Shown here one piece after another: positions 36,974 to 40,637 of a DNA stretch of 64,000 bases. This DNA comes from Euryarchaeota archaeon UBA58 (GTDB taxonomy: Archaea; Thermoplasmatota; Poseidoniia; Poseidoniales; Thalassarchaeaceae). The notes below the pieces were generated by a model. That model had not been told where the DNA came from and ran no database searches. It saw only the letters and a list, made by a program, of their open reading frames with translations. The stretch lies in assembly GCA_002498525.1 (NCBI GenBank), contig DAHR01000008.1:3089-67088 (forward strand), in the 5' to 3' direction. Position numbers and translations under genes: made by a program. The stretch's first letter is position 1; the number at the start of each line of letters is the position of its first letter.

Positions 36974-37085
36974 CACCACAGAGCACACTGAGTCACAGGT
37001 TTTGATTTCCAGGTAGTGAATCAACAGCTTCCTTCGCGGCCACTGCGCGAGGCTCTCCGTGTTCTCTGTGCCTCTGTGGTTGATT
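36974..37085 (+). repeat. Intergenic imperfect-palindrome element, copy B
   Basis: Left arm ACACCACAGAGCACACTGAGTCACAGG (36974-37000). Right arm CTCTCCGTGTTCTCTGTGCCTCTGTGGTTGATT (37053-37085). Nearly identical to the copy A right arm. The left arm matches the reverse complement of 58478-58509. Confidence 0.65.
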
Positions 37086-37124
37086 ACGCGGAAGTTCGAT
37101 AATCGAGGGTTCCGAGGGAGGGTC

Positions 37125-38180
37125 GTGTCAAAGCCTTCTCTGGAGAGCCTCGCCTCATTCATTCGCGACCTCGACAGCAAATGCACACTAGCTCGTTTGA
37201 GCGAGAATCACATCTTCGCCGGCTCGCACGGGGGAGAACTCTGCTGTTGGTATGCAGAATCAGGAGATCTGCGATGGCGCGCTGAAGTGAGCGGTCCGAT
37301 TTCTGATATCGCAATCGACGCCGGACGAATCTACGCCACCGCTTCCGCTTCGCTGCATGCCTTTGACGCTGAGTCAGGCCAGTTGTTGTGGAGTCGCGAA
37401 CTCGAAGGAGGGAGTGATTTCGTACAGGCTTGGAGTGGTGTGGTTTGGGCGTCTTCATCGGTTTACGAATTGGAAATCGATGACTTCATCGAGGCGACGA
37501 TCTGGCGCTTCGATGACTCTGGCGAGCAGCTTGAGCGATGGACTATCAACGAGCGCCCGTGGCATTTCGGATTGCACGAAGATGGGGGGGTTCTACTCGG
37601 GTTGGGTCGGCCTCGGTGTGGATTTCTGCGGATTCGGCCAGGCGAGAAGGCCGAACATTTCGAATTCGCCACAGACAGTCCGGTGACCTGCGGTGCTTGC
37701 GGTTCTGCGGGTCGTTTCCTGCTCGGTCATAGTGATGGAAGCATCAGTTCTGTCGGAACTGATGAGGAAATTGAGCAATATGTCGAATCCTTGGTCACGA
37801 CCATCGCCGGAACGGATTCAGGTTTCATCTCCGGCCATGAGGATGGCTCAATCTGGTTCGACGGTGGGGTGAGAAATGTCGATGGCACTGTAGATGCAAT
37901 TGCGGATCTGAGTGGTGATGGCTGGGCATCGAGTTGGGACGGCAGCGAATCCCGAGTCTCTCTGCTCGCTGCCGAGGCGAGAGAATTCTCACATGATGCG
38001 AGAATCCGACACATGGATTCTCACCAGAATCGACTCATATTCGGCGATGACCTCGGAAAAGTCATTCTACTCGAGTCAGCAGTCGTCAAACGCCGTCTGG
38101 AAGAGGATCTTTCCTCAGCACCGGAAAATGACCGGAATCAGGCGCTGAGAGAGCGTTTAAGGATGTTAAGAAACAGTTGA
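37125..38180 (+). CDS. PQQ-like / WD-like beta-propeller repeat protein
   Basis: Repeated blades with ...ESGDLRWRAEV..., ...ESGQLLWSREL... Start moved to GTG 37125, preceded by GGGAGGG. The track start at 37059 lies inside repeat copy B. Confidence 0.5.
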   Translation: MSKPSLESLASFIRDLDSKCTLARLSENHIFAGSHGGELCCWYAESGDLRWRAEVSGPISDIAIDAGRIYATASASLHAFDAESGQLLWSRELEGGSDFVQAWSGVVWASSSVYELEIDDFIEATIWRFDDSGEQLERWTINERPWHFGLHEDGGVLLGLGRPRCGFLRIRPGEKAEHFEFATDSPVTCGACGSAGRFLLGHSDGSISSVGTDEEIEQYVESLVTTIAGTDSGFISGHEDGSIWFDGGVRNVDGTVDAIADLSGDGWASSWDGSESRVSLLAAEAREFSHDARIRHMDSHQNRLIFGDDLGKVILLESAVVKRRLEEDLSSAPENDRNQALRERLRMLRNS

Positions 38181-38197
38181 TGCCCGGTTCGGAACGC

Positions 38198-38232
38198 ACT
38201 GGAAATTAACATCCACAACCCCTATTTCCAGT
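38198..38232. repeat. Inverted repeat ACTGGAAAT-N17-ATTTCCAGT (hairpin or paired protein-binding boxes)
   Basis: Arms are 38198-38206 and 38224-38232, perfect 9-bp complements. Begins 18 nt after the stop of the beta-propeller gene. The minus-strand copy is followed by AGGGG. Confidence 0.5.
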
Positions 38233-38361
38233 CCACAGTACCTCATTCAACGAAACATTTAAGCGCCTCCCCCGCACAGACCAAAGTTGCCGCTTCAGGG
38301 GAGTGGTGTGGGGCGCGCTTCGGCGCAAACCGCGGGCCACAGAACCGAACCCCAAACTTGG

Positions 38362-38400
38362 GGTGGTAGAACCGGAATCCGAAAGGAGGAAGGGGAACGA
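38362..38400 (+). repeat. Direct repeat unit R1 (GGTGG.AG.GAACCGGA..CG.AAGGA.GGGGA)
   Basis: GGTGGTAGAACCGGAATCCGAAAGGAGGAAGGGGAACGA. Aligns with R2 and R3. Confidence 0.55.
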
Positions 38401-38441
38401 TCGAACCTGTCTGAAGGGCAGGGGAGATACGGTCGAACTGA

Positions 38442-38480
38442 GGTGGAAGGAACCGGACGAAAGAAAGGGGAGAGAAGCAA
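38442..38480 (+). repeat. Direct repeat unit R2
   Basis: GGTGGAAGGAACCGGACGAAAGAAAGGGGAGAGAAGCAA. Aligns with R3 with two single-base indels and a few substitutions. Confidence 0.6.
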
Positions 38481-38620
38481 CGGGGAAAGCTGGGGAAAAC
38501 ACAACCGCACCGCTTCGGCGGGGAGAACGCAACCGTGCCAGCAGACCAGACCGGAGATGTATGTGTGAAGGGCGAGAACCAGAGATGGGACAGACCTGAG
38601 GCAGATTCGTGGGAAACGAA

Positions 38621-38660
38621 GGTGGAAGAGAACCGGACGCAAGGAAGGGGAAAGAGAAAC
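38621..38660 (+). repeat. Direct repeat unit R3
   Basis: GGTGGAAGAGAACCGGACGCAAGGAAGGGGAAAGAGAAAC. Confidence 0.6.
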
Positions 38661-39035
38661 TGGAGGGAAACACGGCGGGAACGAGAGCGCGGAGACGCGT
38701 GGAGGACCGGCATCGATTCTGAAGAACGAACTGGTGAGAGCCAGGGAGGGAAACAGGAACGAAGAAGCGGGGAGCGATCCCAGTGGAATCGGAAACGGCG
38801 AAAGGGCTCTTCGGAGTCAAGAAGTCATCTACCCGGAGAAAAGAACCGCCTTCGGGCGGGGAAAAGAACCGGACCCTGCGGAGTCAGCAGGGGGGATGCT
38901 CCCCCATGTGCAGAACCCCTGCTGCTCCCACCTTGTACCAAAGTACGGCATCGGCCCATTCCATCAGATTATCAATCATTGCGGAGCCTCTCGCTCCGCT
39001 GACTTCAGTTTCGAGTGGCTCCAAGAATCGCCGTC

Positions 39036-40637
39036 TCACTGCTTCGGGCCGATCATCTCATTCGGTCTGACCCATTGATCGAACTGGTCGTTCGTCAGCA
39101 ACCCGAGATCCAGCGCAGCAGCGCGCAGAGTCAATCCCTGCTGATGCGCGTGCTTGGCGATCTTGGCCGCGCTGTCGTAACCGATGTGATTGTTCAGCGC
39201 GGTAACCAACATCAATGAATTCTCGAGGTGCGAACGAATCGCATCCTCATTGGCAGAAAGCCCGTCGACGCACTTGTCGGAAAAGCTCCTGCAGGTGTCG
39301 GCGAGTAGTCGTGTGCTGTGCAACAGATTGTGGATTATCATCGGCTTGTAGACGTTGAGTTCGAAGTTGCCTTGGCTGCCTCCAACGCTGATTGCAGTGT
39401 GATTTCCCAAGACTTGGCAACAGACCATCGTCATCGCCTCCGCTTGAGTCGGATTGACCTTGCCTGGCATGATGCTCGAGCCTGGCTCGTTGGCCGGGAG
39501 GGACAATTCGCCAAATCCACAGCGTGGTCCCGATCCCATCCAACGGATGTCATTGGCGATCTTCATCAGGCTCACAGCAAGCGTGTTCAAGGCGCCTGAT
39601 GCCGCTACTATCGCATCGTGTGCGGCGAGTTGGGCGAATTTGTTCTCAGCACTGATGAATGGCAGTCCTGTCTTCTCACCGATTCTGTCGGCGACCTTGT
39701 CGGCGAACTCGGGATGGGTGTTGAGACCGGTTCCAACGGCCGTTCCTCCGAGTGCGAGTTCGAGAAGGTCGTCGAATGCTGCTTCAATTCTGCGGATGTC
39801 GGCTCCGAGCATGGCGACGTAGGCGCTGAATTCCTGTCCGAGGGTGAGTGGGACGGCGTCCATCAAGTGGGTTCTGCCGATCTTGACGATGCCTGAGAAC
39901 TCCTCGGATTTGGAGGCCAGTGCTGCGCGTAATGCCCTGAGCGAGGGAAGCAATCTGTGGTGAATCTCCTCCGCAGCGGCGATGTGCATGGCCGTTGGGA
40001 AGGTATCGTTGCTGGATTGGCCCCGATTAACGTGGTCATTCGGGTGGACGGGGGTTTTGCTTCCGAGGTCTCCGCCAGCCATCTCAATCGCTCGGTTGGC
40101 GATGACCTCGTTGGCGTTCATGTTGGTCTGGGTTCCCGAGCCGGTCTGCCAGATTCTGAGGGGAAAATGCTCGTCGAGCTCGCCCGATATCACTTCGTCG
40201 CAGGCCGATGTGATGAGGGCGCCGACCTGTGGGTCTAATTGGCTGAGGCTGACATTGATCTCAGCTGCCGCTTGTTTGAGGATTCCGAAGGCGCGAATTA
40301 TCGAGGTTGGCATCTTGTCGTCGCCGATTTCGAAATTAATCAGCGAGCGGGCGGTCTGGGCGCCGTAATAGCGGTCGGCGGGAACTTGCAATTCGCCCAT
40401 CGAGTCTTTCTCGACGCGCACCTCGCCGGATTCGGCTGCAGCGCTCCTAGTTTCGACCGCGCGCTCGAATCGCGTAGGGATGGTCTCGGCTTCGAGGCCT
40501 TGATAGATCATTTTGGCGATGGTTACGGAGCGGCCTTGCTCTCTGCCCTTGCCGACACGGCGGTCAAGCTTCCTCGCCAACTCCTCTGGAATGCTGATAC
40601 TGATGATTCTGCGGTCGCCCACGCGGTGTCTTGCCAT
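39036..40637 (-). CDS. fumC: Class II fumarate hydratase (FumC) with in-frame N-terminal ribbon-helix-helix (CopG/Arc-like) extension
   Basis: Residues ~73-533 are FumC ([43 protein letters not shown] signature). Residues 1-~50 ([23 protein letters not shown]...[15 protein letters not shown]) follow the RHH strand-helix-helix pattern. There is no stop between the two parts. Confidence 0.85.

Follow-up and report, generated by a model that had tools for sequence, protein, structure and literature searches.

The propeller–fumC spacer

The window analysed here is a stretch of 64,000 nucleotides from contig DAHR01000008.1 of Euryarchaeota archaeon UBA58, an archaeal metagenome-assembled genome (MAG) of 1.58 Mb that is 86.7% complete and belongs to the Thalassarchaeaceae (Marine Group IIb, MGIIb). 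The largest real gap between its genes, 38181–39035 (855 bp), is bounded by two stop codons, that of a PQQ-type beta-propeller gene (37059–38180, + strand) and that of the convergent fumC (39036–40637, − strand), the product of which is a class II fumarase. With a greedy open reading frame (ORF) picker, which fills this spacer with a spurious 204-aa ORF on the − strand, no other true gap exceeds about 390 bp, in agreement with a sequence-only reading of the window made beforehand. The same reading proposed that the spacer encodes a large, stable, structured RNA, and conservation, covariation, a promoter of its own and very high abundance now bear this out. The spacer is almost certainly a genuine and independent gene for a structured non-coding RNA (ncRNA) of about 650–700 nt on the + strand. 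The main features of the locus are as follows.

38181–38250, + strand: conserved stretch between the propeller stop codon and the promoter, identity 0.77, holding one arm of the inverted repeat I1
38251–38263, + strand: archaeal promoter, composed of a purine-rich B recognition element (BRE; CGAAAC) and the TATA box TTTAAG (38258–38263), 23 nt upstream of the invariant TTGCCGC
38289–38990, + strand: RNA gene with predicted start at G38289, identity 0.82–0.88; the abundant species in RNA libraries covers about 38299–38874
38206–38820, − strand: spurious 204-aa ORF, annotated as a hypothetical protein; 66 database clusters, no Pfam domain, even codon-position substitutions

The spacer DNA is present in all 27 of the 27 species of the genus MGIIb-O1 (Candidatus Thalassarchaeum), with 78–85% identity over nearly the full length and with synteny retained. 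Identity to the window reaches 0.85 in the 5′ domain of the RNA, 0.82 in its middle part, 0.88 in its 3′ domain and 0.82 over 38935–38990, in comparison with 0.45 at the third codon positions of fumC and 0.38 at those of the propeller gene. Since identity falls to 0.49 over 38991–39035, a segment that is evolving neutrally, the constrained block extends from the promoter to about 38990.

The spacer RNA consists of 38% G, 30% A, 22% C and 10% T. Over 38300–38900 the AT skew is 0.46–0.63 and the GC skew 0.27–0.41, whereas the flanks stay at roughly +/−0.2. Because the + strand is T-poor and the opposite strand A-poor, five of the six frames are open across the spacer; they overlap, and their translations are of low complexity. 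That none of them is coding, as initially suspected, is evident from the substitution pattern. In the 204-aa − strand ORF the three codon positions take 33/32/35% of the substitutions versus 19/10/72% in fumC, and the distribution is even in every candidate frame. Moreover, 336 of the 377 gap runs inside the RNA are not multiples of three (41 are), and 1-nt indels are sometimes compensated across a helix, as in CAGCA-GGGG...GAA-CCCC versus CAGCAGGGGG...GAACCCCC. In many public metagenomes the − strand ORF appears as a “hypothetical protein” of 175–242 aa, often 200–217 aa, and for its 66 clusters (P0001–P0066) amino-acid identity is about 60% at a DNA identity of about 82%. This protein is a recurrent misannotation that stems from an A-poor strand without stop codons. 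No homologous intact protein gene was found at this position in the relatives, the spacer ORFs of genus g4 being unrelated. A 61-codon Cys/His-rich frame starting from the ATG at 38896 was considered and rejected, as it is broken by a 1-nt indel carried by most species.

Distribution in Marine Group II

Three covariance models were used: R1 for the 5′ domain (38287–38397, 31 bp), R2 for the 3′ domain (38826–38934, 27 bp) and R3, a broader model. R2 detected one copy each in 96 of the 151 Thalassarchaeaceae genomes, representing 9 of the 13 genera, and the remaining four genera gave weaker, colinear R1 and R2 matches at the same site. Matches to R3 were obtained in 38 of 40 MGIIb genomes and in 10 of 65 genomes of the Poseidoniaceae (MGIIa), the latter in genera g5, g19 and g23 and colinear with R1. 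Wherever the RNA is found, the order of the locus is constant: propeller gene, RNA, convergent fumC. By these matches, the RNA gene is single-copy and occurs throughout the Thalassarchaeaceae (essentially all genera) and in part of the Poseidoniaceae. The RNA was not found in the MGIIa genera g3, g4, g6, g21, g22, g24 and g25, and searches with R1 and R3 near the propeller gene came back empty in g3, g4, g6, g21 and g24. Two other families of the class, represented in the search by 45 genomes, gave no R3 match, and an invariant 21-mer was not found in viral contigs.

Across genera, the distance from the 5′ to the 3′ domain, as delimited by colinear R1 and R2/R3 matches, varies between 437 and 940 nt. 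In MGIIb the RNA is 61–74% purine irrespective of genomic G+C, with lower values in g7 and in MGIIa. All these counts come from MAGs, which are incomplete, and several of them break inside the RNA gene; contigs ending there include G003:C73, G017:C8, G041:C21, G011:C43/C53, G014:C64, G119:C60 and G128:C34. Such breaks resemble those seen in rRNA genes and probably arise from near-identical sequence in co-occurring species. Genome G014 carries two RNA copies on different contigs. In a member of genus g4 (L159, G028:C14, 2589–3539) the propeller–fumC spacer holds two unrelated hydrophobic membrane-protein ORFs of 161 and 142 aa.

Promoter, transcript ends and abundance

The sequence-only reading held that a gap lying between two stop codons needs no promoter; this proved incorrect, as the locus has its own conserved BRE/TATA promoter. 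The element (C/G)GAAAGG-TTTA(T/A)R recurs at a fixed distance, 23 nt, 5′ of the invariant TTGCCGCTCC at 30 loci, which represent 13 genera of MGIIb and 4 of MGIIa, and in the genus alignment (A1) it is invariant or nearly so. From the spacing of BRE and TATA box to TTGCCGCTCC, transcription is predicted to start at about G38289, a purine after a pyrimidine. In three independent studies, adapter sequence abuts position 38298, 38299 or 38303. As RNA libraries lose the extreme 5′ bases, these positions fit a 5′ end located there or a few nucleotides further 5′.

Of the words sampled from 38000–39200 (1.2 kb), 47–64% were present in each of at least 15 RNA runs, which belong to 13 metatranscriptome studies of seawater and hydrothermal plumes, and in the four runs examined by contig the shared words correspond to the spacer. 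In these four runs, each from a different study, the summed contig depth is 10^5–10^6 over 38240–38860 versus about 2–4 over both neighbour genes. The RNA thus accumulates in metatranscriptomes about five orders of magnitude above the genes next to it.

On the 3′ side the very high depth stops near 38870, contigs with a depth of 100–830 run on to 39214–39285, and conservation stops at about 38990. Dips in contig depth, which is counted per contig and summed over species with some contigs filtered out, were seen over 38860–38983 and, in run X1, also over 38488–38860. A circular form, or one processed at a bulge–helix–bulge motif, would leave a long-range go-back (back-splice) joint; none was present among the contigs of four runs, and contigs can miss such junctions. 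A separate class of contigs spanning about 38800–39285, at a depth of 100–830, covers the 3′ domain of the RNA together with the last 250 nt of fumC, the body of which stays at about 2–4. These contigs may come from antisense read-through of the RNA into fumC or from a stable 3′ fragment of fumC.

Secondary structure and strand

The predicted fold comprises two conserved end domains that flank a variable centre, with the following elements.

38287–38397, + strand: conserved 5′ domain (R1), with P1, a UUCG-capped hairpin, a CCCC-AAACUU-GGGG hairpin and a GNRA-capped hairpin
38289–38307, + strand: P1, an 8-bp 5′-terminal hairpin, GCCGCUUC-AGG-GGAGUGGU, with covariation
38308–38333, + strand: UUCG-capped hairpin with an internal G/A loop, 5′ domain
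38344–38367, + strand: hairpin CCCC-AAACUU-GGGG, 5′ domain
38372–38393, + strand: GNRA-capped hairpin, 5′ domain
38398–38825, + strand: variable central region with long-range helices and many short GNRA- or UNCG-capped hairpins (RNAalifold, compensatory counts)
38429–38434:38549–38554, 38555–38560:38710–38715 and 38607–38611:38671–38675, + strand: nested long-range helices of the central region
38450–38475, + strand: copy 1 of the hairpin module, direct repeat D1
38630–38655, + strand: copy 2 of the hairpin module, direct repeat D1; RNAalifold pairs 492:507, 493:506 and 497:502
38826–38934, + strand: conserved 3′ domain (R2/R3), with a CCGG:CCGG helix, a 13-bp stem and the invariant tail CUCCCACCU
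38833–38836 with 38869–38872, + strand: CCGG:CCGG helix enclosing the UUCG/GCAA hairpin 38846–38859
38881–38893 with 38915–38927, + strand: 13-bp stem carrying the invariant 20-nt loop AUGCUCCCCCAUGUGCAGAA
38935–38990, + strand: tail conserved at the genus level, identity 0.815, comprising the hairpin GUAC-CAAA-GUAC, a segment GGCCC that may pair with 38334–38338, and AUUAUCAAUCAUUGCGGAG, a T-containing block in which a terminator may lie

RNAalifold applied to 22 sequences predicted 149 pairs, 46 of them with compensatory double changes, and the predictions overall range from about 150 to 180 base pairs with about 50 showing compensatory changes. The domain alignments gave a concordant picture. 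When MGIIb-O1 was aligned together with nine divergent shorter homologues, 97.4% of the cells were paired in the 5′ domain (A4) and 98.8% in the 3′ domain (A5), with 10 pairs changing on both sides in each. In the family-wide alignments, 92.9% of the cells were paired in the 5′ domain, where 21 of the 31 pairs change on both sides (A7), and 92.4% in the 3′ domain, where 19 of the 27 pairs do so (A6). Sliding the 3′ partners by 1–3 columns as a control lowered the paired fraction to 34–53% (A4–A7). None of 500 shuffles matched the observed pairing or covariation scores, except for the number of additional pair types in alignments A4 and A5.

Individual helices follow the same pattern. The long-range helix 38429–38434:38549–38554 has G-C in 10 sequences and A-U in 10, and the capped hairpins of the central region are often preceded by AGAAC. 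The four UUCG hairpins and the CAGCAGGGG/CCCCTGCTG stem recognised at the outset lie exactly where they had been placed, and they show compensatory changes in relatives. In the long 3′ stem, all 10 pairs of the G/C-rich core change on both sides family-wide, so the outer stem of the initial proposal stands; the GGGGG-ATGCT-CCCCC hairpin drawn inside it does not, since it competes for the same G run and has no covariation support. A closing helix GGGCC:GGCCC (38334–38338 with 38951–38955) is predicted, but no compensatory change was seen in it. The pairing of the invariant tail CUCCCACCUU with the AAGGUGGAAG boxes (I2) was rejected, as the boxes vary without compensation.

That the RNA is made from the + strand, as first deduced from the UUCG loops, is established by several asymmetries along with the conserved promoter. 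The alignments contain 253 G-U cells versus 28 A-C cells. Among the 4-nt hairpin loops, 132 belong to the GNRA and 39 to the UNCG class, with 0 in the reverse-complement classes, and switches between UUCG and GCAA occur on one and the same stem. The closing pair of P1 is UA in 15 sequences and CG in 14, and its two G-U pairs are invariant, therefore P1 supports the + strand only. In dUTP-type libraries, a first mate reading the − strand is the usual sign of + strand RNA, and this is the orientation always indicated by adapter remnants in the contigs of three studies; the adapter part of the argument is an inference.

Hairpin modules and enriched motifs

The repeats noticed in the spacer are dispersed hairpin modules; Tandem Repeats Finder run on the spacer reported nothing. 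The module is 22 nt long, with the consensus AAC-Y-GGA-C-GNAA-G-RAA-R-GGGAA. It is formed by a C-G and a Y-R pair, three purine–purine pairs and then a C-G pair closing the GNRA loop, so that its GGA sits inside a purine–purine stem and not in a loop. In 80 unique copies the Y:R positions (−1 with +12) covary, being CG in 46, UG in 20 and UA in 14, and never CA. The 5′-GGA/GAA-3′ purine pairs adjoin the C(GNRA)G cap, an arrangement that would be compatible with a K-loop-like motif; K-turns and K-loops, to which L7Ae binds, have tandem sheared G.A pairs beside a 3-nt bulge or a loop. The window RNA holds two modules, and across genera the number per RNA varies from 0 to 7; genera g12, g7, g15 and g18 have 0–1 although the conserved core is kept.

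The number of GGGG tracts (13) was counted as initially estimated, versus 7.9 +/− 2.3 expected from composition, and GGA motifs, put at more than 20, amount to 38 versus 27 +/− 3.9 expected, with GAACCGGA occurring four times. This enrichment is moderate, 1.4–1.6-fold over composition. The word most enriched beyond chance is AGAACCG, and over nine genera the 5-mer AACCG occurs 45 times versus 13.8 expected. The suggested potential for G-quadruplexes was not upheld: the window RNA has no canonical four-tract motif, and runs of four or more G fall to 2–3 in low-GC genera that retain the RNA. G-quadruplex formation is hence not a conserved property.

In runs X1 and X4, RNA contigs contain go-back joints 38395>38371 at a depth of up to about 3700. 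They suggest tandem-duplication variants of the GNRA hairpin of about 24 nt, the copy number of which apparently varies within natural populations.

Comparison with known RNAs

Rfam 15 (4227 models, including OLE, GOLLD, ROOL, HEARO, IMES, CsrB/Rsm, 6S, RNase P and the signal recognition particle, SRP) gave no match at the gathering threshold across the whole window. Over 38000–39200 there were chance-level matches only (E >= 1; H19, ASdes, FsrA and TCL6), and homologues from eight other genera had no Rfam match at E <= 0.1. The absence of RNase P and SRP motifs from the spacer was seen correctly at the start, as both RNAs are encoded elsewhere in the genome: RNase P RNA (RF00373) at G000:C16:11892–12183 with 244.7 bits, and SRP RNA (RF01857) at G000:C18:25988–26300 with 129.9 bits, the spacer matching neither. 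Archaeal RNase P and SRP RNAs resemble the spacer RNA in being abundant, structured and transcribed from their own promoters, but differ in lying on other contigs.

To our knowledge, large ornate RNAs have so far been described mainly from bacteria and their phages. The spacer RNA is longer than 400 nt, has many covariation-backed helices, occurs lineage-wide and is untranslated, as expected of that group. OLE, ROOL and GOLLD are large ornate bacterial ncRNAs, for one of which, OLE, exceptionally high expression has been reported, and their A-rich elements and loops make A-minor and kissing contacts (PMC3413148; bioRxiv 10.1101/2024.12.08.627333). The spacer RNA shares with them a size of 0.5–0.8 kb, a many-helix fold, covariation, high expression, a core joined to variable linkers, and abundant A-rich elements. 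In contrast, it is archaeal and purine-rich (61–74% in MGIIb), carries a variable array of G.A-rich GNRA hairpins, shows no sequence or structure match to them and has no oapA-like partner gene beside it.

Another comparison concerns abundant MGII transcripts that have already been described. In Red Sea MGII, 13 highly expressed “IDP mRNAs” (for intrinsically disordered proteins), which were treated as protein-coding, made up 93% of euryarchaeal reads, and one cluster of disordered proteins was given by contig accession alone (Hou et al. 2016, PMC5069720). The same study described Tan1 (Thalassoarchaea ncRNA 1), 229 nt long, with homologues 75–79% identical in Candidatus Thalassoarchaea. The likeness lies in the lineage, the extreme abundance in RNA-Seq and the low-complexity translations, which would score as disordered. 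For Tan1, the 75–79% identity is close to the 73–80% observed between the window RNA and nine divergent shorter homologues, but 229 nt contrasts with about 650–700 nt for the spacer RNA. Signals of just this kind would be expected from the spacer RNA, with its low-complexity ORFs, its extreme number of reads and its conserved 5′ third. By inference from these descriptions, it may have been read as disordered-protein mRNAs and/or as Tan1. In either case, no earlier account seems to exist of the RNA at full length, of its fold and promoter or of its distribution across the order.

Possible roles of the spacer RNA

Granted that the spacer is an ncRNA gene, a role as an architectural scaffold has in our view an even chance or slightly better. 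The combined proposition, i.e., a structured ncRNA gene that acts as the scaffold of an abundant ribonucleoprotein (RNP) or RNA assembly, is the explanation that we narrowly favour. The RNA is transcribed from its own BRE/TATA promoter, with a predicted start at about 38289, and folds into the conserved 5′ domain, the variable centre with its long-range helices and the conserved 3′ domain. It may then provide the framework on which an RNP or RNA-only assembly of very high abundance is built. Its functional core would lie in the junctions and the invariant single strands of both end domains, and the purine-rich linkers and variable G.A-rich, GNRA-capped modules would supply A-minor and tetraloop contacts or multivalent docking of proteins. 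This view is suggested by the combination of constrained, non-repetitive ends, a variable periphery, GNRA loops with purine-rich linkers and extreme abundance, which is shared with OLE, ROOL and GOLLD.

Several points weigh against such an explanation. The scaffold derives from the analogy to OLE, ROOL and GOLLD and from the anatomy of the RNA alone. Contig depth in the 3′ domain (38875–38934) is at least 100-fold below that of the body, so this domain may be cleaved off as a processing signal and not be part of the mature RNA; alternatively, the low depth may reflect under-sampling due to a very stable structure. Because the depths add up contigs from related species, they do not allow a fine ranking of genes, a limit that hardly touches a contrast of five orders of magnitude; contigs give no direct strand, ends or true transcript level. 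Furthermore, alignments A4–A7 were fitted to the models, which favours pairing, although the MAFFT-based RNAalifold result agrees with them.

The alternatives were weighed as well; their estimates are rough and were not normalised with that of the preferred explanation. The best surviving one, already raised by analogy in the sequence-only reading and in our opinion unlikely, is a protein-titrating sponge like CsrB/RsmZ, in which GGA/AGAACCG hairpins would sequester one RNA-binding protein and control its availability. The spacer RNA resembles these RNAs in having a repeated GGA hairpin unit whose copy number varies between species (two in the window, up to seven elsewhere) and apparently within populations too, in the enrichment of GGA and AGAACCG beyond composition and in its high abundance. 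However, it differs from them in its dispensable modules, its big non-repetitive core, the position of GGA within a stem and the lack of any match to an Rfam sponge family. The most conserved parts are the non-repetitive end domains, GGA is enriched only 1.4-fold, and CsrA (PF02599) was not found in the window's own genome, 86.7% complete as it is. Because the modules are missing in several genera that keep the core and no CsrA was found, titration by repeats cannot be the conserved mechanism of the family, and the conservation of the core, while the module count ranges from 0 to 7, favours a scaffold over a sponge.

A catalytic RNA, whether a large ribozyme or a subunit of an RNP enzyme, seems rather improbable. 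Here the junction nucleotides would form the active site and the centre would be a peripheral expansion. This possibility is consistent with unpaired segments that are invariant across genera (GGGCCACA-AACCGA, UCUACCCGG, GACCCUGCGGAG and CUCCCACCU), with helix 3 of the 3′ domain, which never varies, and with a core plus a periphery varying between 437 and 940 nt. Nevertheless, the abundance is far above that of known catalytic RNAs except rRNA, and neither a substrate nor an associated gene is evident.

There is little reason to regard the spacer as a cis element of its neighbours, be it a long 3′ untranslated region belonging to the propeller gene or a regulator acting on fumC by antisense or read-through. 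The order-wide synteny with both genes and the contigs of depth 100–830 that run from about 38800 to 39214–39285 and overlap the 3′ end of fumC would agree with it. But the RNA has its own conserved promoter, the depth of the propeller gene and of the fumC body is 10^5-fold lower, and the structured, conserved part stops short of fumC, with the neutral segment 38991–39035 in between.

An mRNA for one or more intrinsically disordered low-complexity proteins, as abundant MGII transcripts were read by Hou et al. 2016 (PMC5069720), is very hard to reconcile with the alignments. The five open phases, the 200–217-aa ORF annotated in many metagenomes and the low-complexity translations speak for it. 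The open frames are, however, expected from composition, and the longest ORF is on the strand that is not transcribed. None of the candidate frames shows a codon-position bias in its substitutions, versus 72% at position 3 in fumC, the putative protein diverges to about 60% identity while the DNA remains about 82% identical, and frame-breaking indels of 1–2 nt are common, some of them helix-compensated. Finally, a decayed pseudogene or a neutral spacer with chance hairpins, for which nothing speaks beyond the lack of an annotated gene, can practically be dismissed, given that the RNA is more conserved than both flanking coding genes, covaries, is expressed and is retained order-wide.

Returning to the structured ncRNA as a scaffold, a more far-reaching and decidedly tentative extension is that this is the first large ornate, self-organising archaeal RNA, one that builds a new RNA-only or RNP particle or acts as a ribozyme, and that was formerly mistaken for disordered-protein mRNAs.

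Among the archaea of the surface ocean, Marine Group II is one of the most abundant groups and, as far as we know, it has no cultured member. An RNA that occurs in every Thalassarchaeaceae genus examined and accumulates about 10^5-fold over its neighbours must be a major component of the cell, and in some ocean metatranscriptomes few non-ribosomal transcripts may be more abundant. Its reads can dominate the apparent MGII transcriptome, which alters the reading of MGII expression data, and the published claim of huge expression of disordered-protein genes in MGII will probably be re-interpreted. Recognition of the RNA also removes a recurrent false “hypothetical protein” from MAG annotations. 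In addition, it is a well-defined archaeal candidate for a large ornate RNA, with natural variants diverse enough for its structure to be determined through covariation and cryo-EM.

Further observations at and around the locus

A conserved inverted repeat (I1; 38147–38169 / 38206–38228) spans the propeller stop codon, with the conserved block CCCCTATTTCCAGTCCACAG (38221–38248) after it. No compensatory changes were seen between the arms of this repeat. The element may serve to terminate the propeller transcript or may belong to the promoter as an upstream part. In one relative (L023; G004:C94, ~2000–2760) what looks like an insertion of 670 nt in the RNA gene is a run of N together with a duplicate of the propeller 3′ end, an artefact of scaffolding and not a mobile element. 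At a contig end elsewhere in the genome (G000:C17:100092–101125), a 16S rRNA match spans model positions 4–828 in only 610 bases, accompanied by a small separate piece, and the gene may be incomplete. The N-terminus of the fumC product carries an extension of about 70 residues, within which residues 1–38 (40524–40637) give a weak match to the ribbon-helix-helix family RHH_1 (17 bits, below the cut-off).

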